Below, one piece after another: positions 6,443 through 30,392 of a DNA stretch of 64,000 nt. Positions within the stretch are counted from its first letter, which is position 1, and every line of letters starts with the position of its first letter. The position numbers and the translations under genes are program-made. Origin of the DNA: Peptococcaceae bacterium UBA5752 (GTDB lineage: Bacteria > Bacillota > Dehalobacteriia > UBA4068); assembly GCA_002419055.1 (NCBI GenBank), contig DIFI01000017.1, positions 41,160 through 105,159 of the forward strand, in the 5' to 3' direction. The notes under the pieces were generated by a model. It made no database searches. It was given only the letters and a program-made list of their open reading frames with translations, and was not told the DNA's origin.

Positions 6443-8022
6443 TTTTCCTCATCCTCTTTTAACCAGGTTCTAATCAGTTGAGCAACTATATCGGGGCTGT
6501 TGGAGGAGAAATCTTTGATTTGTTTTTTCAAGTTCTGCTCTCTTGTTTCGTTCAAAACAATTTCTTGTGGCATGGGCAAAACATCCTGCTTCTCTGTTGT
6601 GACGGCTTCCGTCTTTTTGTTCCAAAATTCCCCCACGGCGGCTTTATCGTCTTTGGATTTCTTTTTAGATTTCTTTTTCAAGAACACAAATAAGCATAAA
6701 GCTATGACTATTAAGGCTACTGCTATGCCGATAATCATATATAAGTTGTCAATAATAAAGACATTAACACCTGTAGTTCTCTCCTGATTTGCGGATTGAG
6801 TATCCGTAATAAAATCAACATTGGTTATCGCCACCTTATCTATAGTAACGCCGGCGGCATTAGCTATCATTTGCTTATAATCATTAATCTCTGATGGTGT
6901 CAGGCTTTCGTCTCCGATCAATACTGATATTGTAGTATCCTTAATATCATATCCATCCCGCTGGGTCTGCTCAACAAGTTGGTTATTCAAATAATTGACA
7001 CTGCTGGATTCGCTGAAATTGCCGGTACTGTCTGTGCCGGTTACACTCGGGTAGGTAGTGACACCGGTATTTGAACTCGTCCCCGTAACTCCTCCGCTGC
7101 CGCCACCATTTGATGAACTGACACTTTCTTTAGACGAATCCTGAGTAACAACAAGACCACTATTATCTGTTACAGGTGAATAAGTCGTCGATTCACTTAC
7201 TTTTTTATTTATATCCACCATGGTATTAACTACTACACGCAACCGATCGGCTCCAAAAACCGGTTCAAGAAGCTTTGTGATATTGTTCTGGATAGTTGAG
7301 CTGATAGACTTTTCCAGCTCAAGCCGATTATATGCACTAACTTGGCTTTCATCATTATCGTTGAGCATTTCTCCTGTAGTGCTGACGATCGCGATATTTT
7401 CATCATCTAAACCGTTAACGCTTTTACAAACAAGCGCTTCAATACCATTGACCTGTTTTGCATCCAACTCTACAGATGAACCAATATCCAAAACAATCGC
7501 GGCTGTAGCGGCTTTTTTATCTTCCTCCAGCACAAACGAATCTTCTGCCGGCATGCTGATAGTAACAATGGCATCATCAATACCATTAATCGTTTTAATC
7601 GCTGCCTGCAGTCGATCTTGCAGCTGAAAGAGTAAGTATTGCTTTTTTTCGTAATCGGTCGTCATATAGCCGGAGTTGCTGCTGAAAATATCATAATTGA
7701 GCGTACTTTGCGGGTAGCCTTCCGAGGCAAGTGTCATTTGCAACTCCGCTTCCTGCTCTTGGGGTACCATAATAGTTCCGTTTTCCCCGGTTTTGAAATC
7801 GATGTTCATATCGCTGAGCACTGATGCTATCTTTCCAAGTTCTTCTGATGAAAGTCCGCTATATAAAGTCACATATCCGACACTATTTGCGACTAGTGTA
7901 AGTACTATAGCAATAGCAACCGCAGCAGCTACCGATACGATAATGATTTTCTTCTTTTTAGCGCTTTGTGCTTTCCAAAATTGCGTTATCTGCTGTACAA
8001 CTTGTTTGGTTGTCAATTTCAT
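6439..8022 (-). CDS. fliF: flagellar MS-ring protein FliF
   Basis: 527 aa; N-terminal TM (IIIVSVAAAVAIAIVLTL), large periplasmic region, C-terminal TM (IGIAVALIVIALCLFVFL) then charged tail; typical FliF. Confidence 0.9.
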   Translation of the reverse strand: MKLTTKQVVQQITQFWKAQSAKKKKIIIVSVAAAVAIAIVLTLVANSVGYVTLYSGLSSEELGKIASVLSDMNIDFKTGENGTIMVPQEQEAELQMTLASEGYPQSTLNYDIFSSNSGYMTTDYEKKQYLLFQLQDRLQAAIKTINGIDDAIVTISMPAEDSFVLEEDKKAATAAIVLDIGSSVELDAKQVNGIEALVCKSVNGLDDENIAIVSTTGEMLNDNDESQVSAYNRLELEKSISSTIQNNITKLLEPVFGADRLRVVVNTMVDINKKVSESTTYSPVTDNSGLVVTQDSSKESVSSSNGGGSGGVTGTSSNTGVTTYPSVTGTDSTGNFSESSSVNYLNNQLVEQTQRDGYDIKDTTISVLIGDESLTPSEINDYKQMIANAAGVTIDKVAITNVDFITDTQSANQERTTGVNVFIIDNLYMIIGIAVALIVIALCLFVFLKKKSKKKSKDDKAAVGEFWNKKTEAVTTEKQDVLPMPQEIVLNETREQNLKKQIKDFSSNSPDIVAQLIRTWLKEDEEK

Positions 8023-16091: not shown

Positions 16092-16120
16092 TTGCTGACA
16101 TATGAATACCGTGGTATAAT
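16092..16120 (+). promoter_or_regulatory. putative sigma-A promoter with extended -10 for the 1612-aa gene
   Basis: TTGCTG-N17-tgGTATAAT (perfect -10, TG at -15/-14); ~85-nt leader before RBS AAGGGGG. Confidence 0.4.
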
Positions 16121-16210
16121 TATGCCATCAAGCTGCAAATAAAAGAGACCATAACTGATCGCAAATTAACCGGTGTCCATGGATAGAATTTAGAATGAAG
16201 GGGGTTCCCT

Positions 16211-19200
16211 ATGCAAATTGCATCAGAAAAAAAGATGCTGGCCCTTTTGGTACAGCGTCTAAATGATTCGACGAATCCCTATGTTTATTCATTGAAAAGA
16301 AAAGAAGTTAATGCTTTTTTGGAACAGCATGGCTGGGCAAAAAAGATTAATGATTTGCTACGCATGCCTACTTCTGTTACCTGGAAGCGGGTTTTAGAAT
16401 TAAGCCGGGATACGCTGGATTATCTGTGTGAAATGCCGGATGAAGGCTGGTTAAATTTTACCTTGCATTTTGCCATTGATCTGATGTTCCCCAAAGAAGA
16501 GTTTGCTTTACGCCGCAGTAAATTCAGCGACGGAGCAGTTTTTCTGCTTACTTTGATGCAGCTTGTTTATGACGAAGAAAAGAAAGCCGGATTGATACCT
16601 AAATCGGTTGAGTTTTCTTTACTAAATAAATCTGAAGTAGAGGGCGAGTCAACCGCTGTTGAATACAACCGTTTGCTTAAAGCACTTAGACAGGAATATG
16701 TATACGAAATGATGCGGCTGTCTCAGGAACTGTCGCCCTACCGTTCTTTAGAACATATCGCCAATGTTCATCGGATGGCTCTTTATATGGCGCGGCAATT
16801 GAAGCGCTCCGGCGTACCTGTGGACTTATGCCTTATTTCCGGTGCTGCCCTGACTCATGATATAGGTAAATTTGGCTGCCAGAAAGGTGAACGCGTACCT
16901 TATCTGCATTATTTTTATACTGACAGATGGTGCCGGCAGCAAAATATACCCACAATCGGTCATATCGCGGCCAACCATTCTGTTTGGGATCTGGAGCTAG
17001 AAAATTTGTCGGCGGAATCACTGCTGCTCATTTACGCTGATTTTCGTATTAAACAAGTGACAGATAACGGCGTGGAAAATACCCGCGTATTCACACTCAA
17101 GGAAAGCTTCCAAGTCATACTAGAAAAACTTGATAACGTGGATTCCTCCAAGCGGGACCGTTATCTGAAAGTTTATGATAAGCTCAGCGATTTCGAGGAT
17201 TATCTGCGCTTTTTAGGCGTAGATACAAACATGGATGGCAAAGAATTGCATCCTTGCTGCCGCGAAGCCTCTCTGATGACCGGCGAAGAAGCGGTGGCTT
17301 CTTTGAAACTGCTGGGCGTTGAGCATAATATTGCTCTGATGCACCACTTCGGCAACGAACGATTGTTCGGTAACATCCTGGAAGCTGCCCGAACCGAGAA
17401 AAACTGGAAAAATATCCGCGCCTATCTAGGTGTTTTCGATGAATATTTCACTTATCTGAGCATCAGCCAAAAGGTGCAGACGCTGGCTTTTCTTTACGAG
17501 CTGTTGATGAACCGCGAAGGCGATATACGCCGTCAGGCCGCATCGCTACTGGGCAATATCATTGCGCGCTTCGATATCAGCTATAAAAAAGAACTGCCCG
17601 CCGGTGTGGCGGAGGATGATGATATAACCTCGCTGCAAATGTGGGAAAAATATCTTGAGATGATTATTCATCCGAGTTATAAGCTTACCTTCCAACACAA
17701 AAGCTGGATTGGCTTTACATTAAAGATAGTTATCTCATCATTTTTCGAAAACTGTGACGAGGCTGACCGCCGTCCTTTTATGGAGCGGCTAACCAAGTGG
17801 TTTAGCAGCCCGGATAAGGAAGAGTTGGTCAACTTCTATTTACTTGATGCAATCAATTATCTGCCTCTGAAATTTTGCACGGACAAGGAAAGGTCGCGTC
17901 TACTGACATTTGCCATGGATGCAGCCGAAGGCTCCATATCACTGTTGCGCGCCTCTGCTTTGCGTACTTTGAGCTATATCGTTGCCATCGGCTACCCCTT
18001 AGAACAAGATGAGGTTCGTCGTCTGTCCGCGCTTTGCGTACCCTGCAACGATCAAGAAGAAAATACTACGCTGCGAATGTTAAAAACGCAAATTCGCAGT
18101 TGTTTATCGGAAAGTGACGAAACTGAATTGACTGCCGTCAGCAGTGATACAATCTCCGATATCTTTCTTGATAATCTGAAGATGGCCACCTCGTGGGTGA
18201 TCAAAACCCTTAACGTGGATCTTTTGCTCAGCGTAGCCGAGCAAGACCCGCACAGTCCTTATCTGCTGCATATCGCCGCTCATTTTGCTAATCTGCTCAA
18301 AGTCAGTGAGCGGGTAGTGGTGCGGCACAAAGCCGGCGCCGCGCTGTTGCACATCGCGCCTCTACTTTCCTATGACCAGCGCAATGAGATAGCAGTGGAG
18401 CTGCTACAGGGACTGGAAGTCGGAGAATATGAATTTTCTAAATATATACCCGAATATTTGGGACAGTTTGCTCTCTGGCTAAGTACCGAAGAACTGGAAG
18501 AATTGATTCTCCAACTCAATGATCTGGTTTACAGTCCTAATACAAATGTGGTAGCCGTCGCCATAGCAACAATTGGCGTTCTGATGGAATGCCTCAATAA
18601 TCGCCGTGACAACTTTGGTGAGACTCACCAAATGCAGGAACGCCGCAGAGAATATTTACTTGGTATACTGCTTAAAGGTTTGGTAGGACGTGACGCTGCA
18701 AGACAGGAGTCGATGCTGATCATCGGACAGCACTTCTTTGCCTCTCGCAAACTGGCCGATGACGATAAACGTCAGCTATTCGGCAAATGCTGTAAAAAGC
18801 TGCTCAGCTTAATTAGCGAATATCGGGAAGGCAAACTGGAATTTTTCTACCGTGCCGCTGTTTTAAACAATATTTACCGCTTCATCAGCGATTCCCAGCT
18901 TAATCATGGGGAATTTGTCATTGAACAATTTGATAAAGTTGCGTTTTTCCCCGGCACCTTCGATCCTTTCTCCAATTCTCACAAAGGTATCGTGGAGGAG
19001 ATGCTTCAGCAGGGCTTCGAAGTAATGCTGGCTATCGATGAATATTCCTGGTCCAAAAAAACGCAGCCGCATTTTATCCGGCATCAATTAGCCAATATGA
19101 CTTTGGCCGATAAATTTCATGTCTATGTTTATCCCGGATCTATGCCGGTTAATATTGCAAATCCGCAGGATCTGGCTATGCTGCGACATTCTCTGCCGGA

Positions 19201-21049
19201 GCGTCATATCTATATAGTAGCCGGCAGCGACGTAGTAGCTAATGCTACCGCCTATAAAGAGCCGCCACAACCCGATTCTATCCACAGCTTCGACCATATC
19301 ATATTTCCGCGTACGGAGGGCGAAGATATTGCGGCAGTGATTGACATGGCCGCACTATCCCGCATCAAAGGCGAAGTGATAAGCCTATCACTGCCGGTAT
19401 ACTTGGAAAATGTCAGTTCTACCAACATCCGTGAGGATATTGACAATAACAGAGATATTTCCAATCTGGTTGACCCCATGGTACAGGAGTTCATCTACAA
19501 CAACAATCTCTATCTGCGTGAGCCTCAATACAAACAGTTACCGAACGTCCGGCAAGCCGAAGTGGAACGCTGGACTTCGGCAAATCCCGCCGATGTACAA
19601 CGTCTGTTAAATAAACTGTTGCCGGAGCGGGGTGAGGCAAATCGTGCGACAGCCGTTGCTTTAAGTAAAAGAGGAAGCGAATTTTTTCTGCTCAAAGATG
19701 ACAGCCAAGAGGCTAGTCCGGTAGGAATGATATCGCTGCACGAAGTGCAGATTTCGGAATTGATGCCTTTGTTGGGCAATACCCATTTGGCGGATAAAGT
19801 CCGCCAACGACAGGCCGGACGAGTATTGTTGATCACCGGCATATATATGAGCAAAGACAGTTGGGACAACTCTCAGCTTCTCTGCACCGAAGTATTTGGA
19901 TCAGCGCTGCGTAACGGCTGTACCCATGCTATGTTCTATCCAATCGACACCGCAGGAAACTGCAATTATGTCTTAGAGTTGCTGAAACGCCAAGGTTTTG
20001 TGGTTTTAGAGGACAATGACCCGCGGCAGCCGTTATATATTACCGATTTGCGTGCGCCTTTGGTGTTGCTCCGCAATATCGAGACATCTATGAAGGCGCC
20101 TTTTGCCAATTTACCGTCTGTATTGAAGGCGGCACAAGGGGCTCACTGGCGGTTGCAGACTGCCATGGCAGGACTCAAGCCGGGTCATCTGGTATTATCC
20201 GTAGATTCCAATATCATGCAGGAAAAGCTGATCCGCCGCATTACAGAACTTAACGGCGTACCGGCAAAACCCGTAGAGCCTCCGCAGTTTGGCCCCTTGA
20301 TGTGCGTTCCTTTCAGCAAGTTACTGCGGCGCAGTATAGTGCCGAATACAGTGACCAAGACAGTGCATACAGACAAAGTGTTTGAGCCAGATATCAGCAA
20401 ATTTTCTATTGAAGCATATCCCAATTATTTGCCGCTGGAATACCAAATTCGCACTATCAAATCATTTATGCGCCCGGTGATTATGGTGACTGATATGCTG
20501 CAAAGCGGCCACAGGTTAAGAACATTATCTCCGATTTTTAATCAACAGGGTATTGAGATCCACGCCGTATTAGCGGGAATATTATCCGGACGGGGCCGTG
20601 ATGTTGTCTCCACGCAAGGTTATCGTGTCGAATGCATCTATTTTGTTCCCAACCTTCATGGCTGGTGCATCGAGTCCACTCTCTATCCTTTCATCGGCGG
20701 AGATACGGTGCGCAGAAATGAAAGTCCTAAGGCCAATCTGCTACCCGCGGTCAACCTGATACTGCCCTATGCTTCTATTCGCATTTTCAACCAATTTCCG
20801 AGAAAAGCGGTATACGATTATTCGCTTGCATGTATGGAAAATGCCCGCGATATCATGCAGGTGTTGGAACAGGAATACGCCGCCCGCTTCGGACGCAATC
20901 TGACATTGAACCGCCTCTCTGAAGTTATCCACCTGCCGTTGCTGCCTGATAAGGGTAAATATATGCAATATGATTACAATCTTACGGCATCTGTTTATAT
21001 AAAAAATGATATCGAGCTGCTGTTGCGGCTGAGTAATCAGTTTCGATGA
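16211..21049 (+). CDS. giant multidomain protein: HD phosphohydrolase motif + long helical (HEAT/ARM-like) region + HxGH/ISSTxIR nucleotidyltransferase domain (NMN/NaMN adenylyltransferase-like) + type-I phosphoribosyltransferase-like domain
   Basis: HD motif ...NVHRMALYMARQL...ALTHDIGKFG...HIAANH...LIYADFR (nt ~16750-17080); NTase FFPGTFDPFSNSHKGIV ... ENVSSTNIRE (nt ~18940-19440); PRTase-like VIMVTDMLQSGHRLRTL (nt ~20477-20527); strong RBS; single uninterrupted ORF. Confidence 0.85.
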   Translation: MQIASEKKMLALLVQRLNDSTNPYVYSLKRKEVNAFLEQHGWAKKINDLLRMPTSVTWKRVLELSRDTLDYLCEMPDEGWLNFTLHFAIDLMFPKEEFALRRSKFSDGAVFLLTLMQLVYDEEKKAGLIPKSVEFSLLNKSEVEGESTAVEYNRLLKALRQEYVYEMMRLSQELSPYRSLEHIANVHRMALYMARQLKRSGVPVDLCLISGAALTHDIGKFGCQKGERVPYLHYFYTDRWCRQQNIPTIGHIAANHSVWDLELENLSAESLLLIYADFRIKQVTDNGVENTRVFTLKESFQVILEKLDNVDSSKRDRYLKVYDKLSDFEDYLRFLGVDTNMDGKELHPCCREASLMTGEEAVASLKLLGVEHNIALMHHFGNERLFGNILEAARTEKNWKNIRAYLGVFDEYFTYLSISQKVQTLAFLYELLMNREGDIRRQAASLLGNIIARFDISYKKELPAGVAEDDDITSLQMWEKYLEMIIHPSYKLTFQHKSWIGFTLKIVISSFFENCDEADRRPFMERLTKWFSSPDKEELVNFYLLDAINYLPLKFCTDKERSRLLTFAMDAAEGSISLLRASALRTLSYIVAIGYPLEQDEVRRLSALCVPCNDQEENTTLRMLKTQIRSCLSESDETELTAVSSDTISDIFLDNLKMATSWVIKTLNVDLLLSVAEQDPHSPYLLHIAAHFANLLKVSERVVVRHKAGAALLHIAPLLSYDQRNEIAVELLQGLEVGEYEFSKYIPEYLGQFALWLSTEELEELILQLNDLVYSPNTNVVAVAIATIGVLMECLNNRRDNFGETHQMQERRREYLLGILLKGLVGRDAARQESMLIIGQHFFASRKLADDDKRQLFGKCCKKLLSLISEYREGKLEFFYRAAVLNNIYRFISDSQLNHGEFVIEQFDKVAFFPGTFDPFSNSHKGIVEEMLQQGFEVMLAIDEYSWSKKTQPHFIRHQLANMTLADKFHVYVYPGSMPVNIANPQDLAMLRHSLPERHIYIVAGSDVVANATAYKEPPQPDSIHSFDHIIFPRTEGEDIAAVIDMAALSRIKGEVISLSLPVYLENVSSTNIREDIDNNRDISNLVDPMVQEFIYNNNLYLREPQYKQLPNVRQAEVERWTSANPADVQRLLNKLLPERGEANRATAVALSKRGSEFFLLKDDSQEASPVGMISLHEVQISELMPLLGNTHLADKVRQRQAGRVLLITGIYMSKDSWDNSQLLCTEVFGSALRNGCTHAMFYPIDTAGNCNYVLELLKRQGFVVLEDNDPRQPLYITDLRAPLVLLRNIETSMKAPFANLPSVLKAAQGAHWRLQTAMAGLKPGHLVLSVDSNIMQEKLIRRITELNGVPAKPVEPPQFGPLMCVPFSKLLRRSIVPNTVTKTVHTDKVFEPDISKFSIEAYPNYLPLEYQIRTIKSFMRPVIMVTDMLQSGHRLRTLSPIFNQQGIEIHAVLAGILSGRGRDVVSTQGYRVECIYFVPNLHGWCIESTLYPFIGGDTVRRNESPKANLLPAVNLILPYASIRIFNQFPRKAVYDYSLACMENARDIMQVLEQEYAARFGRNLTLNRLSEVIHLPLLPDKGKYMQYDYNLTASVYIKNDIELLLRLSNQFR

Positions 21050-21066: not shown

Positions 21067-22320
21067 ATGTACTATGCCAAATTAGATGAAAACTATATAT
21101 GTTCTTTAAAAGGCGATTTACCGGGGCAGAAAGTGCATCAATTGCCATCGGATGTATCTCGGACGGTTTTTTTGTTTGAGCGCGATCCGTTAACTTGCCG
21201 TGATGCTTTCGCCGTTACCCACCCTTGCCAATTGTCCGCGCAAACAGAGGATGTGACTTGGCTGGCATCTGAGAGTTTACCGTCGGCGGAAAAACTGCCG
21301 CTACAAGTGACAGAGCTAATCCGTAATGACCAACTGCGTGCAGTCAACAAATCGCATCCCCGCTGGAGAGAATTGCTAAATTGTACTGCTGCGGAGGGGA
21401 AAAAACGGGTCAATATTATCGCAGTAGGCGATGTCGGCGGTACTGTGCTTATTGGTCTGCGTCTATTGGGTGGCGATATACTTTCTTCTATCGGCATCTA
21501 TGACCTGTCGCCCACGACTTTAGACCGCTGGGAATTCGAAGTGGGACAAGTTTACTCTCCCTGGACCGAATATCAGCCTCCGCATGTAGCCATAATAGAT
21601 GAGGAAAACATCTTCGATTGCGATATGCTGGTCTTTTGCGCCACCGGCGGCGTGCCTCCGCTTGCGGAAAAAGGCGATGTACGTTTAGCACAGCTTGCCG
21701 TCAACAGCCGTTTAGTATCACATTATGCCAAACTGGCACGCCAGCGAAGTTTTGGCGGCATCTTTGCGGTTGTCAGCGATCCGGTTGATCTGCTTTGCCG
21801 CATAGCATGGTTGGAAAGTAACCGTAATCATGACGGCCGCTGGGACGGCAAGGGTTTATTCACGGCACAGGTGGAGGGCTACGGTTTAGGAGTTATGTAT
21901 GCGCGGGCAGCTTATTATGCCCGCCGCGACAGCCGCTTTGCTGCTTTTTTGAACGATGGCGCAGCTTATGGGCCTCACGGCTCCGAACTGGTTATTGCCA
22001 ATTCCCTGTCTGATTATGACGATGACCTATCAAGGGAATTGACGCGCCTGGCTGCCGAGGCTAATCTGGAAGCCAGGTCACGGGATTTCAAGCCCTTCAT
22101 TGCGCCTGCTCTTTCCTCCGCTGCTTATCAGATACTCGACACTTTGCGGGGACGCCCTCATCTCGGCGCAACTATGCTGGGTGATATCTTTTTCGGCGCT
22201 GTCAACCGGCGAGGGCCCTCCGGCATAGAGGTTTTTTCTCATCCCCTACCGCAAGAGCTGCTATCCCGTATCCAATATTCTGCTGCTGTTTTGCAAAATT
22301 TGGGAGAACACTATGAATAA
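21067..22320 (+). CDS. lactate/malate dehydrogenase-family (Ldh_1-like) NAD(P)-binding protein with ~100-aa N-terminal extension
   Basis: KRVNIIAVGDVGGTVLIGL (Rossmann GxGxxG), DMLVFCATG, SDPVDLL (cf. LDH TNPVDIL), GYGLGVMYARAAYYAR, GPHGSELV (cf. GEHGDS with catalytic His); TAGGAG RBS, 18-nt gap after upstream gene. Confidence 0.7.
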   Translation: MYYAKLDENYICSLKGDLPGQKVHQLPSDVSRTVFLFERDPLTCRDAFAVTHPCQLSAQTEDVTWLASESLPSAEKLPLQVTELIRNDQLRAVNKSHPRWRELLNCTAAEGKKRVNIIAVGDVGGTVLIGLRLLGGDILSSIGIYDLSPTTLDRWEFEVGQVYSPWTEYQPPHVAIIDEENIFDCDMLVFCATGGVPPLAEKGDVRLAQLAVNSRLVSHYAKLARQRSFGGIFAVVSDPVDLLCRIAWLESNRNHDGRWDGKGLFTAQVEGYGLGVMYARAAYYARRDSRFAAFLNDGAAYGPHGSELVIANSLSDYDDDLSRELTRLAAEANLEARSRDFKPFIAPALSSAAYQILDTLRGRPHLGATMLGDIFFGAVNRRGPSGIEVFSHPLPQELLSRIQYSAAVLQNLGEHYE

Positions 22321-23359
22321 AGATTTAGTTCTTGTGATGCCTCATTGCGGTGAAAAAGAAAAAACACTGCGTATGCGCAGCGTACTCAAATATGCCCTTG
22401 AAGGCCAAAAAATCAGCCGCCGTATTGAGACAGTCAAAGAGCTAGAGGATCTTCAAGGTTGCCGTATTCTGTTTGCGGTCAATCTGGGGGCATCGGGAAT
22501 CAACCTCAGTTTTTATGCGATGCTGAAAAAAATACGCCTGCACAGTCACATGTTCGAAGGTTGTGTCGGTGGAGTGATAGTGGACGGACAAAGTGTGCTT
22601 TATACAAAAGCTGTGGCCCGCGACCTAGTCTTTGCTGCAAATACGGCAGGCTGCGCCTTTATTGGCCGGCCGTTGGTGGAAGGACCGGCATCACTGGCCA
22701 ATTTTCATATTTTGGCGCAAATAAATGATACCGATGAATGGTCGGCTTATCACCGTGAGGCGCGTAGTATGGTCGAACGCATCTGTTCAACCAAGCCGCC
22801 ACGACCGGGACGCGGTGAGGTGCTGGTGCTTCATGCTTCTTCACGCAGTACATCCAACACTTTGATGCTGTGGGAGATGATCCGCTCTCATCTCGGCGAG
22901 CGTCCAATAACCGAAATATGTCTGCGTAACGGCACTGTCAAAGACTGTGTCGGCTGCCCTTATAAAACCTGCCTCCATTTTGGTGAGCAGAACAGTTGTT
23001 TTTACGGCGGAGTTTTAACCGAAAGCGTTTATCCGGCCATTCAGCGTTGTGACAGCCTAGTGATGCTCTGCCCCAATTATAACGACTCGGTATCCGCCAA
23101 TATTTCCGCCGGTATCAACCGGCTGACCGCTTTATTCCGCAATGTCCGTTTTTATGATAAAAAAACCCATGCTGTGATTGTCTCAGGTTATTCCGGCAGC
23201 GATATTGTGGCCGGACAGTTGATCGCGGCGCTTAATATGAATAAAAGTTTCTATCTGCCGCCGCGCTTTTGCATCTGCGAAACCGCCAATAACGTGGGTA
23301 GTATCCTCAAAGTCGAAGGTATAAGTGAGCGCGCCGCGGCGTTTGCTAAAACGATATAA
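22313..23359 (+). CDS. NADPH-dependent FMN reductase/flavodoxin-like fold protein with ~150-aa N-terminal extension
   Basis: C-terminal half VLVLHASSRSTSNTLMLWEMI...CDSLVMLCPNYNDSVSANISAGINRL resembles FMN_red/iron-sulfur flavoprotein family; start overlaps upstream stop by 8 nt. Confidence 0.55.
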   Translation: MNKDLVLVMPHCGEKEKTLRMRSVLKYALEGQKISRRIETVKELEDLQGCRILFAVNLGASGINLSFYAMLKKIRLHSHMFEGCVGGVIVDGQSVLYTKAVARDLVFAANTAGCAFIGRPLVEGPASLANFHILAQINDTDEWSAYHREARSMVERICSTKPPRPGRGEVLVLHASSRSTSNTLMLWEMIRSHLGERPITEICLRNGTVKDCVGCPYKTCLHFGEQNSCFYGGVLTESVYPAIQRCDSLVMLCPNYNDSVSANISAGINRLTALFRNVRFYDKKTHAVIVSGYSGSDIVAGQLIAALNMNKSFYLPPRFCICETANNVGSILKVEGISERAAAFAKTI

Positions 23360-23370
23360 GTATTTATCAA

Positions 23371-23420
23371 AACAAATACGTCGGTTTTGTGATAAGAAAC
23401 CGGCGTATTTGTTATTTTTA
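23371..23420 (+). terminator. rho-independent terminator ending the three-gene operon
   Basis: 17-bp stem aacaaatacgtcggttt/aaaccggcgtatttgtt (one G-U), loop tgtgataag, then ATTTTT. Confidence 0.8.
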
Positions 23421-23518
23421 GAGACATTTACATATATATATTATTCACAAATAATATATATTGTGATATATTTATACATGTTATCACTATAATCATATAA
23501 TTATAGTGGAGGATCTAA

Positions 23519-24310
23519 ATGAGTAAGTCCAATGTTTTTATGATAATGCCTTTCGAAGATGCATTTTTTGAAGCATATGAAATGCTTAAAGAAAGATTTG
23601 CTGATAATTTTGAGTTTTGTCATGCAGGGGACGATGTAAATACACAACAAAACGTTCTTAAGGACATTGTACAAATGATTTGTAATGCAGATGTCATCAT
23701 CGCAGATTTAACAAACCTAAACTCAAATGTCTTTTATGAATTAGGGGGTTGCTCACACTCTTAAAAAAAAAATGTTATTATCATCACACAGAATATAAGT
23801 GAACTACCGTTTGATATTGAATCTTACAGAGCAATAGAATATTCTGTGCATTTTAAGAGATTTGATAATCTAATCAAAGAACTTGAGAGATACTTGAAAG
23901 GTGCAATAGACGGAACGGTAACTTTTGGAAATCCGGTGACAGATTTCTTATCTACTGTTAGCTCCACAATACAAAAAACTTATAAAACAGAAAGCTCTTT
24001 GGACGAGACAATTGGTGAGAAAGTATTCATTGATTTTTTGGTAGATATTGAAGAAAAAACATTATTATTTACAGATACCATTGTTGAAATGACGGCCGAT
24101 CTTAATAATATGACGGATGATATAACTAAAGAAACAGCAGAAATTAATCGTGTCAAACAAAACGGGGGCTCTGGTACCGCATTATTTATGCGTAAAACAG
24201 CAAAAATAGTTGCAGAAAGCATAAGTTTTTTTGCTAAGAAAGTAATAATCATAACTCTAGCTACTTATATTTATGACCGGAAATTGAGAAGAATTGTATT
24301 GGCCTTCTAG
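23519..24310 (+). pseudogene. nucleoside 2-deoxyribosyltransferase/Rcl-like (SLOG-like) domain protein interrupted by one in-frame TAA at 23762-23764
   Basis: ORFs 23519-23764 and 23846-24310 are in the same frame with no other stop between; joined reading gives ...ADVIIADLTNLNSNVFYELGGCSHS*LKKNVIIITQNISELPFDIESYRAIEY..., i.e. the NDT/Rcl motif (FE[IL]G with catalytic Glu, then hydrophobic K-P-V-I strand); stop sits at start of an A10 run. Confidence 0.5.
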
Positions 24311-24592
24311 AGAATAAGTATATCAATGAACCAGAAATAAAACTGAAATAATAACATTTCTTAAATCATTATTCCAAATGAAGCAGACAATAATTACTAC
24401 TTCCGAACAAACAAAAGATATGATAGATAGTTTTTCAGCCTTAAAACGATACAAAGTTATTTAGAGATTGACCTCAATAAGTTTTTACAATTTTCAGCAC
24501 AGATGGTAGCCTCTATTGATAGGATTTTGGATAAGAGTAAATTTGTGGTAGGACAAATAGACTTTTCCGAATAAATAAATATTCTTTGATTA

Positions 24593-24630
24593 AAAAGCCT
24601 TGATATAAATAAAATATCAAGGCTTTTTAT
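24593..24630. terminator. bidirectional rho-independent terminator
   Basis: stem aaagccttgata / tatcaaggcttt with loop, flanked by A-run and T-run; between convergent genes. Confidence 0.7.
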
Positions 24631-24632
24631 AT

Positions 24633-24911
24633 TTAACCTCCCGCAACGACCGGGAATATGGCAACTAAATCATTTGCGGCAAGTTTGGTATGGATTCCGT
24701 TAAGATGTTGGACATGCCGTCCGTTGACAAGGATGATGATTTCGGAGTTCAAATCCGTTTGCTCTTCGTCAAACACCGCATCCCTAAATTTATTACCGTA
24801 CTTTTTGGACAGTTGCCGTAACAAATCGGCGAGATCATCAACCGATTCATTCCAGCTTGTCCGTTTTTCGCCGGTATAATCGCGGATATAAGCAAAATAT
24901 TTGATCTCCAT
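24633..24911 (-). CDS. MoaD/ThiS-family sulfur-carrier (ubiquitin-like) protein
   Basis: 92 aa ending in ...FPVVAGG (C-terminal Gly-Gly), AAGGGGTG RBS; last gene of the AOR operon. Confidence 0.7.
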   Translation of the reverse strand: MEIKYFAYIRDYTGEKRTSWNESVDDLADLLRQLSKKYGNKFRDAVFDEEQTDLNSEIIILVNGRHVQHLNGIHTKLAANDLVAIFPVVAGG

Positions 24912-24950
24912 ACTCTCACCCCTTAAAGTAATATCTTAACACATCATACC

Positions 24951-25730
24951 TTATTTATCAGAATCAAGATACTCATCCAAATGCAAGCCGTCTTTGAGCC
25001 TTGTCGCTGCCCGCTTGGTCTTACAATAATTACAAAGCTGTAACTCCTCGATATTACCTACCGTTTCGCCCAATTTTTTGCGAACATGCTCCAACGACTC
25101 CGGCGTTGTGAAATACTCACCGCAATCCCGGCAGCGCAATAACTCAAACGTCTTTTCCCAAATGGTGCGGTTTCCTTCTGCTTCGGTCATCTCGATTGCC
25201 TGCGTAGGACATATAATGGCGCACGAGCCGCAGCCAATGCAATCCGCCGCCGGTTCGTTAAAGGCCGTACCGATCTTCTTTTTTGTCCCCCGGTTGAGCG
25301 TAGAAATCGCATTAGTGCCTAATTCCTCGCAAGCTTTGACGCACAAACCGCAAAGGATGCATTTACTGTCCGGATCGGCTTCTAAACGGTCGAACGGTTC
25401 GACATGATAGCGTGCAAGCAACCCTTTGATTCTCGCACTGTCCGGCGCAATTAAATTATACAATGCCAGCAATATCTTGCGTCTGGCCGCAATCATTTCA
25501 CTGTTAGTGAATACTTCCATGCCGTCGGCTACAGGATAAGTGCAGGAGGCCACATATTGAGTTCTCCCGTTTTCATGTACTTCGACCATACATAAACGGC
25601 ATGATGCCAAACCAGGCAGCGCCTCTGAATGGCATAAAGTAGGTATCTCAATGCCGTTGCGCCGTGCCACATCCAGGATTTTTTCGCCGGGATTGGCCGC
25701 ATACGTTTTCCCATTTATGATTATTTGCAT
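24951..25730 (-). CDS. 2Fe-2S ferredoxin-type + 4Fe-4S cluster protein (NuoG/HydC N-terminal-like electron-transfer subunit)
   Basis: Start at internal ATG (MQIIINGKTY...) with AAAGGAGG RBS; CHSEALPGLASCRLCMVEV (2Fe-2S), CILCGLCVKAC and CIGCGSCAIICP (4Fe-4S). Confidence 0.7.
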   Translation of the reverse strand: MQIIINGKTYAANPGEKILDVARRNGIEIPTLCHSEALPGLASCRLCMVEVHENGRTQYVASCTYPVADGMEVFTNSEMIAARRKILLALYNLIAPDSARIKGLLARYHVEPFDRLEADPDSKCILCGLCVKACEELGTNAISTLNRGTKKKIGTAFNEPAADCIGCGSCAIICPTQAIEMTEAEGNRTIWEKTFELLRCRDCGEYFTTPESLEHVRKKLGETVGNIEELQLCNYCKTKRAATRLKDGLHLDEYLDSDK

Positions 25731-25746
25731 CTTATCTCGCCTCCTT

Positions 25747-27543
25747 TTAATGCACTCGGATTGCATCCACCGCACAGCGTTCACGGCAACTGTTGCAATT
25801 GATACATTTTGCTTCATCCAAAACATGAGGCTGCTTTTTCTCGCCGCTAATGGCCGCCGTCGGACATGATTTTGCACACAAGCCGCAGCCGATACAAGCT
25901 TCTTGATCAATGTAAAGCTTTGTCAAGTTCTTACAAACTCCGGCCGGACAACGTTTATCTTTGATGTGAGCTTCAAATTCATCGCGGAAATTTTTAATAT
26001 TAGAAAGTACAGGATTTGGCGCTGTTTTTCCAAGGCCGCACAACGAATTAGCCTTGACCATTGACCCGATTTCTTCCAATAATTCGATATCCCCTTCTTG
26101 CCCCTTTCCTTCGCAAATATCGTTGAGGATCTTCAGCATACTTTTGATACCTTCACGGCAAGGCACGCATTTTCCGCATGATTCTTCGGACAAAAATTTC
26201 AGGTAATAGCGGGCAAATTCTACCATACAGGTGCGGTCGTCAATGACGATCATGCCGCCGGAACCCATCATTGATCCTTCCGCGATCAGCGAATCATAGT
26301 CGATTGGCAAATCAAGTTTGCTTTCCGGAATACAGCCTCCGGAAGGACCGCCCGTTTGTACCGCTTTAAACTTACGTTTTTTCTCGATGCCGCCGCCGAT
26401 GTCAAATATGATCTCCCGCAATTTGATACCCATCGGTACTTCCACCAAGCCGGTATTATTGATTTTGCCGACCAAAGCGAAAACTTTGGTTCCTTTACTC
26501 TTTTCACTGCCGATTGAGGCAAACCAATCAGCGCCTTTACTGATGATCACCGGCACATTCGCCCAGGTTTCCACATTATTGATGATTGTCGGCTTGCCCC
26601 ATAAGCCTTGGTTTGCCGGAAACGGCGGTTTGGACGTCGGTTCACCGGTTGAGCCTTCGATTGAATGAATTAAGGATGTTTCCTCGCCGCAGACAAATGC
26701 GCCGCCACCGCGTACCACTTCAGCGTCAAACGCAAACCCGCTGCCAAAAATATTTTGACCCATAACTCCTCTTGCATGTGCATCGGCAATCGCCTTTTTC
26801 ATGTTTTCCACGGCCAGGCCATATTCATCACGGATATACAGGAATGCACGATTAGCGCCGATTGCATAACCGCATATAGCCATACCTTCCAATACAGTAT
26901 GCGGGTCTCCTTCCATTATCGAACGGTCCATAAATGCACCCGGGTCGCCTTCGTCGCCGTTGCAGATAACATATTTGATGTCTCCTTGAGCTTTGGCAGC
27001 AAACGACCATTTTAAACCGGTCAGAAAACCGCCGCCGCCTCTACCGCGCAAGCTGGATTTTCTTATTTCATCTATTACCTCTTGCGGAGTCATCGTCTTT
27101 AACACTTTTTCCAGTGCTTGATAACCGCCTTTGGCAATGTAATCATCAATGCTGTCATTTGCTATACATCCACAATGACGCAAAGCAATCCTAAATTGTT
27201 TCTTTTCGAACGACCAATCATTCTTGGATTGGATCTTTGCATTTTGTTGTTTATCAAAATACAGCAGTCTGTCGATTACTTCGTCTTTAATAATGCTTCG
27301 TTCAATGATCTCCTGAACATCTGTGGTTTTAACATGAATATATGTAATTTCTTGCGGCGTAATATGAACCAACGGGCCTTTTTGGCAAAGGCCATGGCAA
27401 CCTGTTTTTTTGATATCGGCAACAACTTCAACATCCAAATCCAGTTTAGATATTATTTTTTGCATAGTTTGGTATATTTTCATACTGCCACTTGCCTGGC
27501 ATCCGGTGCCGCAGCAAACAAATATCGTTTTTTTATTTTGCAT
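25747..27543 (-). CDS. NuoF/HydB-like NAD(H)-binding FMN + Fe-S subunit (51-kDa family) with N-terminal thioredoxin-like and C-terminal 2x[4Fe-4S] domains
   Basis: GGGGFLTGLKWSF, ICNGDEGDPGAFMDRSIMEGDPH (FMN/NADH site), ESCGKCVPCREG (N3 cluster), C-terminal CIGCGLCAKSCP...CINCNSCRERC. Confidence 0.9.
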   Translation of the reverse strand: MQNKKTIFVCCGTGCQASGSMKIYQTMQKIISKLDLDVEVVADIKKTGCHGLCQKGPLVHITPQEITYIHVKTTDVQEIIERSIIKDEVIDRLLYFDKQQNAKIQSKNDWSFEKKQFRIALRHCGCIANDSIDDYIAKGGYQALEKVLKTMTPQEVIDEIRKSSLRGRGGGGFLTGLKWSFAAKAQGDIKYVICNGDEGDPGAFMDRSIMEGDPHTVLEGMAICGYAIGANRAFLYIRDEYGLAVENMKKAIADAHARGVMGQNIFGSGFAFDAEVVRGGGAFVCGEETSLIHSIEGSTGEPTSKPPFPANQGLWGKPTIINNVETWANVPVIISKGADWFASIGSEKSKGTKVFALVGKINNTGLVEVPMGIKLREIIFDIGGGIEKKRKFKAVQTGGPSGGCIPESKLDLPIDYDSLIAEGSMMGSGGMIVIDDRTCMVEFARYYLKFLSEESCGKCVPCREGIKSMLKILNDICEGKGQEGDIELLEEIGSMVKANSLCGLGKTAPNPVLSNIKNFRDEFEAHIKDKRCPAGVCKNLTKLYIDQEACIGCGLCAKSCPTAAISGEKKQPHVLDEAKCINCNSCRERCAVDAIRVH

Positions 27544-28021
27544 CTTCGATCCCTCCTTGATATTGTTGGAGTATTTGTCTCAAGGAAGCAGGTGTCAAAT
27601 TGCCATGATATTCATCATTGATTACCGCAACAGGTGCTAGTCCGCAAGCGCCTATACAGGCAACCGTTTCCAATGAAAACAATCCGTCGGCGGTAGTTTC
27701 CCCGGGTTCGATACCGAGAATCGTTTCTATTTCCGAAAGCAGGTTTAAAGAGCCTTTAATATGACAGGCAGTTCCATCACACACCTTTATAATATACTTA
27801 CCCTTGGGGGTAAGGCTGAATGCTTTATAAAATGTAGCCATTCCACAAACCTTGACTAATGGAACATTAAGGTATTGAGCAACGGTCTTCATTGCTTCCG
27901 CAGGCAAATAATTATAATGTCTTTGTATATCTTGCAAGATTGCCAGCAAAAATCGGCGTTCCGGCAGATATTTTTGGGCAATCTTTAAAGTCTCCGATTT
28001 TATTTGCGATATTTCACTCAT
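27533..28021 (-). CDS. NuoE/HydA-gamma-like [2Fe-2S] thioredoxin-like subunit
   Basis: CDGTACHIKG...CIGACGLAPV motif; start set to ATG (MSEISQIK) with GGGGGG RBS. Confidence 0.85.
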   Translation of the reverse strand: MSEISQIKSETLKIAQKYLPERRFLLAILQDIQRHYNYLPAEAMKTVAQYLNVPLVKVCGMATFYKAFSLTPKGKYIIKVCDGTACHIKGSLNLLSEIETILGIEPGETTADGLFSLETVACIGACGLAPVAVINDEYHGNLTPASLRQILQQYQGGIEDAK

Positions 28022-28094
28022 AATTATCCCCCCAGCCATTGAGAAAGAGAGGGAAAGAAGACCAATACTCCTTTCCCCATTCTTTCATTTTTTT

Positions 28095-29909
28095 TTAAAG
28101 CTGTTTCAAATTCAAATCTTGCATTTTCTCTGCAGTCGGTACACCGGATGGGTTCCAACCGCGCAATTGATAATATTCGGGCAGCATTTCATGTAAACGG
28201 TTGACGCTTCCCTTATATGCGCCATTCTTTTGTGGCTCATTCAAGATTCTCGGCGGCAGCGTATCGTCTGCGCCTGTAAAACCACAGGCGTTATTAAAGA
28301 CACGCTCCAGGTTCCAGATCCGTTCGCCGCATTTCATTAATTCTTCCCCGGTATACTCAAACCCGGTTCCGGCTGATAATACTTTGGCAATGATATCAGC
28401 GTCAAGCGCAAATGTTGTAAATAGACAGAAGCCGGCAGCATCAACTGCGGAAGTCAAATCCTGGAATATCTTGCAAACTGCAGCTTTACCTTCGGTAACA
28501 GCCGGGTCCAGCTTCATCGGAATGCCGAGGATTTCCGGCGAAGTCATATATCCACGAACATGGCAGCCGCCACGATTGGATGTTGCATATTCAAGTCCGA
28601 TACCTTGTAATGTACGTGGCTCGTAGGCAGGCATTTCCTGCTTTTTAACGCTCATTGACAATTCGGCATGGCCGTAATGTTCGGCCAAACGATACGAACC
28701 TTCGGCCAATAAGTTACCGATACCCTCACGGTAAGCGGTTTTTTCGACCAGCTCTTTTAATATTGCTGCATTACCAAATGACAGATCACAACCGGCATCT
28801 TCTTTGGGCATATAACCGCTTTCATAAAGCTCCATCGCGCAAGCAATCGTAGTCGGCATGGAAATTGCATCAATACCCAATTCATTACAGCGGAAGTTTG
28901 CTTGACAGATGGCGTCAATATCGCTGATACCACAGTCGGCGCCAAAGCCCCAGCCTGCTTCATACTCTGGGCCTTCGCCAAATCCCGCATATGGCTTGAA
29001 TGTGCGTGTGACCCTGCCACAACCTATAACACAAGAAAAACATCCTTTATTACGAACAAGATTCTTGTGCTCAATCATATACTCACCGCTCGTCTTGTCC
29101 GCCCATTCAATAGTGCCCGAATCCCTGAAGTTACGAACCGGCAAACCATTGGATTGGTCAAGAATATTGATAAGTATCTGCGTACCGTAGGCCTTTAATC
29201 CGGCGCCGGTGACAGGATTATCTTTTAATGCTTTTGTTGCCTCAGTAATAGCTGTTGCAAATCTATCCCTATTTGCTACATAAACCGGTTTATTGCCTTT
29301 AACTGCAATGGCCTTTAAATTTTTAGAACCCATGACGGCACCGACACCGCTTCGTCCGGCGGCTCTGTTCATTTCGTTCAAAATACAAGCAAATTTGCAT
29401 AGGTTTTCACCGGCAGGCCCGATACAGGAAATTTTTGCTCTTTCGCTGGTTTCGGTACGCAACAGATCAGTTGTGTCGGGCACTTCTTTGCCCCAAATAT
29501 GAGAGGCATCTTTAATTTCAACTTTATCGTTATCGATCCACAGATAAACCGGTTTTTCGGATTTGCCTTCGATAACAAAGCCATCATACCCCGCAAACTT
29601 CATTTCGGCGCCAAATTCGCCGCCTGAGTTTGAACTGGCAATCGTATTAGTTAACGGACCGCGTGTTATTACCATGAAACGGCCGGATGACGGAGATCCG
29701 GTGCCAGTCAAAGGCCCTGTCAAATAATACATATTATTTGCCGGATCCAACGGAGCTACATTAGGACCGACTTCCTCACAATACATTTTTGTCCCCAGCC
29801 CACGCCCGCCAATATATTCACGTGCATATTCCTGGTTTAAGGACTCGGTCGAAATTGTACCGTTTGTTAAATTGACTCTTAATAACTTACCTTGATAACA
29901 ACTGGACAT
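28095..29909 (-). CDS. tungsten-type aldehyde:ferredoxin oxidoreductase (AOR family)
   Basis: 604 aa; N-terminus MSSCYQGKLLRVNLTNGTISTESLNQEYAREYIGGRGLGTKM and full-length AFOR N/C domain pattern; GAGGAGGTG RBS. Confidence 0.9.
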   Translation of the reverse strand: MSSCYQGKLLRVNLTNGTISTESLNQEYAREYIGGRGLGTKMYCEEVGPNVAPLDPANNMYYLTGPLTGTGSPSSGRFMVITRGPLTNTIASSNSGGEFGAEMKFAGYDGFVIEGKSEKPVYLWIDNDKVEIKDASHIWGKEVPDTTDLLRTETSERAKISCIGPAGENLCKFACILNEMNRAAGRSGVGAVMGSKNLKAIAVKGNKPVYVANRDRFATAITEATKALKDNPVTGAGLKAYGTQILINILDQSNGLPVRNFRDSGTIEWADKTSGEYMIEHKNLVRNKGCFSCVIGCGRVTRTFKPYAGFGEGPEYEAGWGFGADCGISDIDAICQANFRCNELGIDAISMPTTIACAMELYESGYMPKEDAGCDLSFGNAAILKELVEKTAYREGIGNLLAEGSYRLAEHYGHAELSMSVKKQEMPAYEPRTLQGIGLEYATSNRGGCHVRGYMTSPEILGIPMKLDPAVTEGKAAVCKIFQDLTSAVDAAGFCLFTTFALDADIIAKVLSAGTGFEYTGEELMKCGERIWNLERVFNNACGFTGADDTLPPRILNEPQKNGAYKGSVNRLHEMLPEYYQLRGWNPSGVPTAEKMQDLNLKQL

Positions 29910-29912
29910 AAC

Positions 29913-30392
29913 TTATGACACCTCCTCAAACACTTTTTTGAACTTCTCGGCATAAAGTGCTTTTTTGGCCATGACGACTTCACTGGCTTCTTTGTATTCA
30001 ATCGCGCCATTGGGACAAGCTTTTGCGCATGCCGGTTCACCTTTACATAAATCACATTTAAGTACGCGTTTTGTTTCAACATCATACGAAATATTACCGA
30101 AAGGACAAGCGCTGACACACAGCTTACAACCAATACATTTTTGCTTTTCCCATACCACTCCGTTTGTTGCGGTATCTCTGCCAAGCGCTCCGGTAGTGCA
30201 AACATTCATACACGGTGCATCTTCGCAATGCATACACATCAAAGGTACTCCTAAGCCTATCCGTTCCCAAATAAGAGTATGTACTCTTGACTTTGCCGGG
30301 TTAAAAGCATCTTCTTTGGCAAATGAACATGCTAATTCGCAGTTCCGGCAGCTGGCACATTTTTCCGGAGAAATAATCAATATCTTTTGCAT
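29913..30392 (-). CDS. polyferredoxin-like 4x[4Fe-4S] protein (AorA-like electron-transfer subunit)
   Basis: 159 aa with four CxxCxxCxxxCP-type motifs (CASCRNCELAC, CMHCEDAPCMNVC, CIGCKLCVSACP, CDLCKGEPACAKACP); weak RBS. Confidence 0.8.
   Translation of the reverse strand: MQKILIISPEKCASCRNCELACSFAKEDAFNPAKSRVHTLIWERIGLGVPLMCMHCEDAPCMNVCTTGALGRDTATNGVVWEKQKCIGCKLCVSACPFGNISYDVETKRVLKCDLCKGEPACAKACPNGAIEYKEASEVVMAKKALYAEKFKKVFEEVS

Follow-up and report, generated by a model that had tools for sequence, protein, structure and literature searches.

The subject of this report is a gene at positions 16211–21049 (+) of a 64,000-nt window (contig DIFI01000017.1, 41,160–105,159, forward strand), here called BIG together with its 1612-amino-acid (aa) product. 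In anaerobic Clostridia, BIG heads a conserved operon on the chromosome, in which the genes of a dehydrogenase and a flavoprotein come second and third. By its folds and motifs, the protein can be placed in the HD, HIGH-motif nucleotidyltransferase (NTase), GNAT-fold, type I phosphoribosyltransferase (PRTase)-fold and HEAT superfamilies, while it lies below the curated thresholds of all the specific families tested (the NadD equivalogs and Pfam HD, Pribosyltran and Acetyltransf_1). BIG is no oddity of one genome; it belongs to a large, uncharacterised family that is conserved among gut Clostridia. As to function, BIG may tentatively be taken as a phosphoribosyl pyrophosphate (PRPP)-dependent ribotide-to-adenine-dinucleotide synthase with an integral HD phosphodiesterase; it would be connected with its redox partners and might have to do with oxidative stress.

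A first-pass annotation of the window had claimed an open reading frame (ORF) coding for a single 1612-aa protein, and the ORF list and its translation contain it exactly so, with an ATG start. Homologues are full-length at 1600–1625 aa, and because they align with BIG from residue 1 through to the end with 44–61% identity, the ORF is, as judged from sequence conservation, a real gene under selection and not a chance one. The same annotation had proposed a fusion of HD, a HEAT-like spacer, NTase and type I PRTase in one polypeptide, which has been borne out by domain scans, structural models and motif conservation. All four modules are present, but the list was incomplete, as a GNAT fold between NTase and PRTase had been missed. 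It had also stated that no characterised enzyme has this architecture, and indeed no characterised orthologue was found in PDB, NCBIfam, Pfam or a literature search. Neither NCBIfam nor Pfam holds a family-specific model for BIG, and in sequence searches of PDB, with the single sequence and with a family profile, the NTase part alone was matched, weakly.

Domain architecture of BIG

Motif conservation was counted over 46 aligned homologues, and structures were predicted with AlphaFold2 (AF2) for aa 1–910, using the 46-sequence alignment, and for aa 1105–1612. The former model is wholly helical (predicted local distance difference test score, pLDDT, 86.8; predicted template modelling score, pTM, 0.83). 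It starts with an N-terminal helical region (aa 1–148; 16211–16654, +), which is all-helical with a pLDDT of about 76–95, has no Pfam or NCBIfam match and fits no recognised family; domain hidden Markov models (HMMs) detected it together with the HD domain in 62 of 150 family representatives. The HD domain (aa ~150–340; 16658–17230, +) scores below the gathering threshold of Pfam HD (PF01966; 19.3 bits against 22, E 1.5e-3). Its best NCBIfam match is the HD part of DVU_1551 (E 8e-7), HDIG is matched at E 0.011, and the YqeK family was not reported in the NCBIfam scan. All 46 homologues have the putative metal ligands H187, H216, D217, H256 and D277, and 45 have H251, a conservation of 45–46 in 46 that upholds the HD motif pointed out in the first-pass annotation. 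BIG has the metal-ligand pattern of the HD superfamily (H...HD...D plus two additional His), and the six-ligand pattern H..HD..H..H..D is typical of dinuclear phosphodiesterase-type HD enzymes, among them YqeK, an Ap4A hydrolase associated with NadD. The domain is a predicted HDIG-type phosphohydrolase in which no metal ligand is missing.

The spacer between HD and NTase, described earlier as helical and repeat-like, turned out in the AF2 model and by Foldseek to be a predicted HEAT-type solenoid of ~540 aa (HEAT/ARM-type α-solenoid, aa ~358–900; 17282–18910, +). In the model, ~25 helices across this region are stacked as helical hairpins, and the top 50 PDB structures found by Foldseek are all HEAT or ARM proteins, including Kap121p (E 1e-6), the PP2A A subunit, SF3B1 and importins. 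Pfam HEAT gave an E value of 0.17 only.

The NTase domain (aa ~905–1105; 18923–19525, +) was delineated from Pfam, NCBIfam, a PDB profile search and motifs. It passes Pfam CTP_transf_like (22.8 bits, cut-off 21), and this score and two sequence motifs place it in the superfamily of HIGH-motif, cytidylyltransferase-like NTases. Among the NTase families of NCBIfam, NadD is the closest (TIGR00482, E 1.8e-9 across positions 2–194 of 194); PPAT and archaeal NMNAT models are weaker, and those of RibF, TagD and CitC gave no match. A family profile compared with PDB matched a nicotinic acid mononucleotide (NaMN) adenylyltransferase (5llt, E 5e-4), and nicotinamide mononucleotide (NMN) adenylyltransferases and PPAT were also weakly matched. 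The motifs FFPGTFDPF(S/T)xSH and (I/V)SS(T/S)xIR are invariant. The earlier assignment of a NadD/NMNAT-like domain therefore stands, except that the first motif is of the PPAT-like (T/S)xxH variant and not HxGH. A further invariant motif, DEFSWSKKxQP, is specific to the family and by eye is not NadD-like.

The model of aa 1105–1612 (pLDDT 78, pTM 0.83) contains two folds, GNAT and then PRTase. The GNAT fold was recognised in the predicted structure at aa ~1112–1292 (19544–20086, +). Over 14 aligned members, the acetyl-CoA motif Q/RxxGxG/A of the β4–α3 loop is absent by eye, with the loop variable in length and sequence, and the usual Tyr is likewise missing; Pfam Acetyltransf_1 gave a weak match in two of the 14 and none in BIG. 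Since both the acetyl-CoA loop and the usual Tyr are lacking, this domain is probably not a canonical acetyl-CoA transferase.

The C-terminal part (aa ~1320–1612; 20168–21046, +), defined from Foldseek and motifs, is a type I PRTase-like domain with a helical C-terminal extension. Its fold is that of the Bacillus subtilis xanthine PRTase Xpt (1y0b, also 6w1i; Foldseek E 2.7e-4, probability 1.0, 172 columns). Pfam Pribosyltran weakly matches seven of the 14 homologues (best E 0.037), and NCBIfam models of APRT type match the region weakly (best E 4e-4); the domain is closest to purine PRTases, namely to Xpt by fold and to APRT models by sequence. The type I fold claimed in the first-pass annotation is thus present, while the acidic pair of the PRPP loop is T-D in BIG and D-D in 43 of the 46 homologues. 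The loop reads VIMVTDMLQSGHR in BIG and VILVDDLLHxGxR in homologues, and the consensus of the wider family, VILVDDLLH(K/S)G(Y/D)R, fits the scheme of four hydrophobic residues, two acidic ones and a phosphate-binding turn. The region also contains two invariant family-specific motifs, PNTVTKTxHTDK and YPFIGGD.

The three-gene operon and the variants of the family

The operon is recognised from gene junctions of 18 nt and −8 nt, a promoter-like site and a strong terminator. The promoter-like site (16092–16120, +), already noted in the first-pass annotation and visible in the sequence as a consensus match only, consists of TTGCTG, a 17-nt spacer and the extended −10 element TGgTATAAT, and a promoter scan gave an overlapping 9/12 match at 16095–16123. 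A Shine–Dalgarno-like AAGGGGG (16198–16204, +) is located 6 nt before the ATG. An Rfam E-value scan of 14.5–25 kb of the window for a riboswitch or another RNA leader revealed nothing credible. A PerR-box-like sequence in the operon promoter was considered and rejected, as by eye no more than one half-site matches.

The second gene (21067–22320, +), 18 nt downstream of BIG, encodes a lactate/malate dehydrogenase (LDH/MDH)-like NAD-binding dehydrogenase of 417 aa with an N-terminal extension of ~110 aa. It scores 25.3 bits with Pfam Ldh_1_N (E 1.7e-5) against a cut-off of 27, and L-LDH 1ldn is matched in PDB at E 1.1e-5. Inspection by eye indicates that it retains a GxGxxG-type loop and the β2 Asp and that its Arg, Arg and His are spaced like R109, R171 and H195 of LDH; GDVRL, Arg 280 and the His 304 of GPHG are conserved with the 24-residue spacing of LDH, and Met is in the place of Asp168. 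The third gene (22313–23359, +), overlapping the second by 8 nt, encodes a two-domain flavoprotein of 348 aa, which passes Pfam FMN_red (E 3.6e-13, 49.8 bits against a cut-off of 24). A Cys cluster, CxxCx4Cx8C (C212, C215, C220 and C229), and the flavin mononucleotide (FMN) loop are conserved over 52 sequences, and the protein is an FMN_red-type flavoprotein with a predicted four-Cys iron–sulfur (Fe-S) site. The operon is closed by an intrinsic-terminator-like hairpin with an 18-bp stem and a T-run (23371–23423, +), found by a terminator scan.

Synteny was counted over 65 species-level loci with enough downstream flank. The LDH-like gene lies directly downstream of BIG in 58 of these and the flavoprotein gene is present in 57, whereas the other neighbours are not conserved and are specific to lineages. 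For this reason, the che/flagellar genes and the AT-rich islet are placed outside the system. The first-pass annotation had located BIG between these two, a description that passes over the two co-transcribed genes before the islet.

The family comprises more than 7,000 database clusters at 90% identity, which align with BIG over its whole length. A census of one genome per species found it in at least 580 species, almost all of them Oscillospiraceae, Lachnospiraceae or other Clostridia. The sole non-Clostridia genome among the 80 best genome loci is Prevotella sp. CAG:279 (L046); its cassette is of the kind usual in Lachnospiraceae, so that the contig has probably been mis-binned and does not testify to the family in Bacteroidota. 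Variants were sought exhaustively by HMMER with a profile of the GNAT and PRTase parts, which gave 567 clusters at 50% identity, of which 230 reached E<=1e-30, and domain HMMs were then mapped on the best 150. About 77 of these have the full architecture, about 20 are of an HD-less form, HEAT-NTase-(GNAT)-PRTase, of 1050–1310 aa with its own Met start, and the remainder are fragments. The PRPP loop and YPF(I/L/V)GGD are near-universal, and HEAT plus PRTase form the universal core across variants. The NTase motif is degenerate in two sub-clades, by H→Q in some full-length members and by H→D with loss of ISSTxIR in some HD-less ones.

The neighbourhoods of variants were compared at about a dozen loci, a small sample. 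The HD-less members P0205, P0238 and P0218, with an intact NTase, are followed by an Ldh_1_N gene and then an FMN_red-like gene (recognised by Pfam or by similarity to the flavoprotein of the window), and the divergent 1714-aa member P0267 has an Ldh_1_N gene after it. The operon trio thus recurs with HD-less relatives in distant lineages, and functionally the redox pair is to be counted with the HEAT plus PRTase core. The six degenerate-NTase members examined sit beside a kinase gene, which is of PPDK_N type in four and of APH type in two. The HD-less P0213, P0217, P0253 and P0222 are preceded by an 850–874-aa PPDK_N (ATP-grasp dikinase-like) protein, 54–61% identical among loci, with the genes mostly adjoining or overlapping. 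The H→Q members P0203 and P0229 are flanked by homologous APH-type kinases. This distribution suggests that the kind of partner gene goes with the condition of the NTase motif, with an LDH-like gene directly behind members whose motif is intact and a kinase gene beside those in which it is degenerate, and the NTase step appears replaceable by a kinase; such a pattern is the expectation if the NTase step is a real and replaceable activation chemistry. The rule is not strict. A form in which every intact NTase has an adjacent LDH-like gene was rejected, because seven Oscillibacter/Dysosmobacter loci lack the partners nearby and one NTase-degenerate, PPDK_N-linked member has the pair.

Some further details of these loci were recorded. 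HD-less paralogues of 1065–1286 aa, with the order HEAT-NTase*-GNAT-PRTase, are found at the PPDK_N loci L084–L087, L092–L093, L097–L099 and L117, and remoter PPDK_N homologues (~50% identity) are not beside such genes. The PPDK_N partner has an ATP-grasp domain at aa ~320–680 after an unassigned N-terminal region of ~300 aa; the idea that its ~320-aa N-terminus might be a detached N-terminal/HD region was discarded, as the domain HMMs gave no match. The APH-type kinase genes (L094, 12847–13776, −; L095, 5647–6600, −) are convergent to the family gene, and their products are 36% identical to each other. In one distant genome (L088, GCA_002754915.1; 2135–7522), an HD-less cassette lies just downstream, on the same strand, of genes for thymidine kinase, phosphoglucose isomerase, a bona fide HGPRTase and deoxyribose-phosphate aldolase, a nucleoside-salvage context that was seen only once.

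Genes of stress type recur near the family in unrelated lineages. In about 16 loci, genes for a FUR-family (PerR-like) regulator and rubrerythrin are divergently upstream of BIG. In Lachnospiraceae-type loci, the regulator is ~200 bp upstream on the opposite strand and rubrerythrin follows (for example L038, 4070–4471, −, and L048, 3443–3985, −). The shared FUR/BIG intergenic region could hold a putative peroxide-responsive operator. Other such neighbours are rubredoxin, HSP20 and ClpB in L092, HSP20 in L090, rubredoxin, GCS2 and YaaD in L094, a nitroreductase in L084 and a flavin reductase–rubredoxin fusion in L082. The recurrence of such genes suggests a role in redox or oxidative-stress physiology.

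Proposed chemistry and competing explanations

Several known systems share parts of BIG. The NadD–YqeK fusions (PRK07152 type, with a C-terminal HD) and the nadD–yqeK gene pair of Firmicutes likewise have a NadD-type NTase and an HD hydrolase in one polypeptide or operon, and the PRK07152 model covers the NTase part of BIG at E 9e-9 with a score far under the cut-off. In BIG, however, the order is reversed with HD first, ~540 aa of HEAT lie between, a GNAT fold and a PRTase are added, the HD is of DVU_1551/HDIG type and the partner genes differ. Consecutive (di)nucleotide steps are also fused or clustered around an NMNAT fold in NAD salvage enzymes (NadR, with NMNAT and ribosylnicotinamide kinase; NadM–Nudix; NadV plus NadM), and adenylylation of a PRTase product is the logic of NAD salvage. 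Compared with these, BIG has no helix-turn-helix, kinase or Nudix domain, and its HEAT, GNAT and HD domains and redox partners are unprecedented there; its PRTase is of type I and purine-PRTase-like, while PncB, NadC and NadV are of type II. GlnD and SpoT/Rel resemble BIG in combining a transferase and an HD hydrolase in one chain with sensory or scaffold domains, a possible make/break pair. Their transferases are of pol-beta or RelA-SpoT type and act on proteins or (p)ppGpp, whereas that of BIG is of the HIGH-motif, Rossmann-like type, and BIG has no ACT or TGS domain. The purine PRTases (B. subtilis Xpt and APRT) share with BIG the type I fold and a PRPP-loop-like motif (hydrophobic x4, D-D, xx, H-x-G-x-R). 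BIG differs from them in an identity of ~17%, the loop T-D...Q-S-G-H-R, an additional helical C-terminal subdomain of ~100 aa, its own invariant motifs and the placing of the domain within a 1612-aa protein. Finally, citrate lyase ligase (CitC) is known to have a GNAT-type fold beside a HIGH-motif NTase fold, as does BIG, although the domain order is opposite, the Citrate_ly_lig model is unmatched and the NTase of BIG is NadD-like and not CitC-like.

In the proposed scheme, the PRTase domain would join PRPP and a base or nucleophile into a ribose-5'-phosphate conjugate, that is, a mononucleotide, and the adjacent NadD-like domain would adenylylate this 5'-phosphate with ATP to form an adenine dinucleotide. 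NadD adenylylates nicotinate ribotide, itself a product of a PRTase. The line from base through mononucleotide to adenine dinucleotide is drawn because the product of a PRTase is exactly what a NadD-like enzyme adenylylates and because both are fused here. The HD domain might be a hydrolase that cleaves or shortens the pyrophosphate-linked product or else a competing nucleotide, a role assigned on the 'make and break' logic of NadD–YqeK and SpoT/GlnD. Scaffolding or ligand binding would fall to the HEAT solenoid and the GNAT-like fold, and the dehydrogenase and the flavoprotein might either carry out redox changes on the base or ribotide or be users of the dinucleotide. This is the most economical, though tentative, explanation of the fusion. 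An NAD salvage megasynthase, or a new dinucleotide, would be compatible with the evidence.

Several observations weigh against this scheme. In the PRPP loop of BIG, Thr replaces the first acid and Gln the conserved His, and a few relatives have D-T or H-D; a purely catalytic PRTase is usually intolerant of such changes. Pfam Pribosyltran fails to match BIG. The NadD equivalog cut-offs are not reached (TIGR00482, 37.9 bits against 112.45; NF000840, 37.2 against 150). Adenylylation is not a universal core of the family, because the NTase is degenerate in whole sub-clades that keep HEAT and PRTase, and at least one module is probably non-catalytic, since the GNAT fold has no acetyl-CoA loop. The partner genes are also not always as expected. 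The seven Oscillibacter/Dysosmobacter loci mentioned above have intact motifs and no partner genes nearby, and on one contig the LDH-like and flavoprotein genes are found 2–5 kb upstream of a pair of PPDK_N and HD-less, NTase-degenerate genes with no other family member nearby. The pattern of stress-type neighbours is anecdotal and partly phylogenetically redundant, not statistical.

Some of the same observations would fit a rather improbable alternative, in which BIG is a ligand-sensing regulatory scaffold. The PRTase-like, GNAT-like and some of the NTase-like modules would then be pseudo-enzymes serving as sensors of PRPP, nucleotides or ligands of acyl-CoA type, HEAT would hold the LDH-like protein and the flavoprotein (or the dikinase), and HD would be the sole catalytic output, so that redox reactions are tuned to nucleotide status. 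PRTase-like domains of PurR and PyrR are ligand sensors, and HEAT repeats are typical scaffolds for protein–protein interaction. The absence of the acetyl-CoA signature from the GNAT fold, the decay of NTase motifs (H→Q, H→D, loss of ISSTxIR) with retention of the fold, the variation of the PRPP-loop acidic pair in some members including BIG (T-D) and the change of partner proteins with the variant all agree with such a scaffold. On the other hand, all the NTase and HD catalytic motifs are invariant in the dominant clade, to which BIG belongs, and the PRPP loop and YPFIGGD are near-universal, a conservation that looks more like that of active sites; moreover, Pfam and NCBIfam scans gave no DNA-binding or signalling output domain in BIG. 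It is quite unlikely, though conceivable by analogy with RelA/SpoT or GlnD, that BIG is a synthetase/hydrolase of Ap4A-type dinucleoside polyphosphates or a similar alarmone with an output linked to oxidative or heat stress. A nucleotide adenylylated by the NadD-like domain would be broken down again by HD, with the APRT-like domain as a source or sensor of AMP or PRPP. In Gram-positive bacteria, Ap4A is hydrolysed by the HD-domain protein YqeK, which is genetically linked with NadD or fused to it. The pairing of NTase with an HD having all the ligands H..HD..H..H..D, the match to the NadD–HD fusion model PRK07152 (E 9e-9), the recurrent stress-related neighbours and the APRT/XPRT-like PRTase are in line with this idea, but the HD domain is nearest to DVU_1551 with YqeK unreported by NCBIfam, HD is missing from about 20 of the 150 representatives, and the LDH-like and flavoprotein partners are left without a clear role.

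Database entries name such proteins 'nicotinate-nicotinamide nucleotide adenylyltransferase' or 'nicotinic acid mononucleotide adenylyltransferase', and NadD models are the top matches of the NTase, which would agree with a housekeeping NaMN/NMN adenylyltransferase, a plain NadD with accessory domains. This is very unlikely. The scores are 3–8 times under the NadD equivalog cut-offs, the acceptor-side motif DEFSWSKKxQP is by eye family-specific and not NadD-like, there are clades with a degenerate NTase, and ~1400 additional conserved residues and the dedicated partner genes would be left unexplained. BIG should not be named NadD. The first-pass annotation had also considered an NAD-linked conflict or defence protein. 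For an NAD- or nucleotide-linked anti-phage defence or other conflict system on a mobile islet, slightly raised GC content, the adjacent AT-rich stretch and the frequency of nucleotide-centred multidomain giants among defence systems might speak. Searches of PADLOC-DB 2.0 gave one weak partial match for BIG (PDC-S19, 14.7 bits, E 0.0033) and nothing for its partner proteins, PHROGs has no family for BIG or the LDH-like partner, and no relatives of BIG were found in 2.9 million viral contigs. Moreover, no integrase or repeats were noted at the locus, the flanking genes are housekeeping and differ by lineage, and in at least 580 species the family is found on the chromosome in stable synteny, its length hardly varying and its metabolic partner genes conserved. 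Defence is therefore disfavoured, to the point of being scarcely credible.

Returning to the synthase scheme, a more specific and unlikely extension is that the operon is a new pathway in which the PRTase and the NadD-like domain, held on the HEAT scaffold, build a non-canonical adenine dinucleotide. This would be either a redox cofactor or an alarmone resembling Ap4A, for which HD would be the dedicated hydrolase. The partners would make or use the product, and in sister clades phosphorylation by PPDK_N or APH proteins would replace adenylylation.

Genomic surroundings and significance

The GC content of the operon, 0.475, is the maximum of the window (mean 0.415; standard deviation (sd) of 5-kb windows 0.027). 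The first-pass annotation had called it clearly above the flanking flagellar genes; the excess over the mean is no more than ~2 sd, and so there is no clear island signal. A horizontal-transfer islet was rejected on the same ground and because the flanks are ordinary flagellar and redox genes. Directly after the terminator lies an AT-rich stretch (23360–24630; GC 0.297 against the window mean of 0.415) with several promoter-like sites. Its two small ORFs (23519–23764, 81 aa; 23846–24310, 154 aa) have no Pfam match, and tblastn with both found no match in 80 related genome loci (L002–L081). Beyond it, on the opposite strand (24633–30205, −), is a redox operon encoding a ThiS/MoaD-like small protein, a 2Fe-2S/4Fe-4S ferredoxin-domain protein, a NuoF-like flavoprotein (Complex1_51K and NADH_4Fe-4S), a NuoE-like 2Fe-2S protein, an aldehyde:ferredoxin oxidoreductase (AOR; AFOR_N/AFOR_C) and a small 4Fe-4S protein. 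It looks like an NADH-linked tungsten/molybdenum AOR module.

The same DNA is found on a 242-kb JGI metagenome contig (L001, 3300000568 Draft_10010298), which is 99.96% identical to positions 6715–31000 of the window with seven indels. Both ORFs of the AT-rich stretch are also called there. The indels split BIG into calls of 156 aa and 1446 aa, and the flavoprotein call is shortened to 246 aa; fliD also appears split (121 aa against 642 aa). The reading frame of BIG is intact in the window, unlike in this copy, and such indels call for caution with architectures taken from databases.

The family is concentrated in Oscillospiraceae and Lachnospiraceae, which are dominant gut anaerobes of relevance to health. 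Its members are currently annotated as 'cytidyltransferase-related' or, probably wrongly, as NadD, which is likely to be a systematic mis-annotation. The map of variants, with HD-less forms, NTase-degenerate forms next to a dikinase or an APH kinase, and the universal core of HEAT and PRTase, provides testable handles on the chemistry. That an enzyme of 1600 residues and five modules is conserved together with two dedicated redox partners implies that a piece of nucleotide, cofactor or stress metabolism has gone unrecognised. There is a modest chance that BIG, built from known kinds of enzyme, hides a new pathway for a dinucleotide cofactor or an alarmone. If the pathway to a non-canonical dinucleotide should prove true, a core, unnamed metabolite of gut Clostridia would await discovery.

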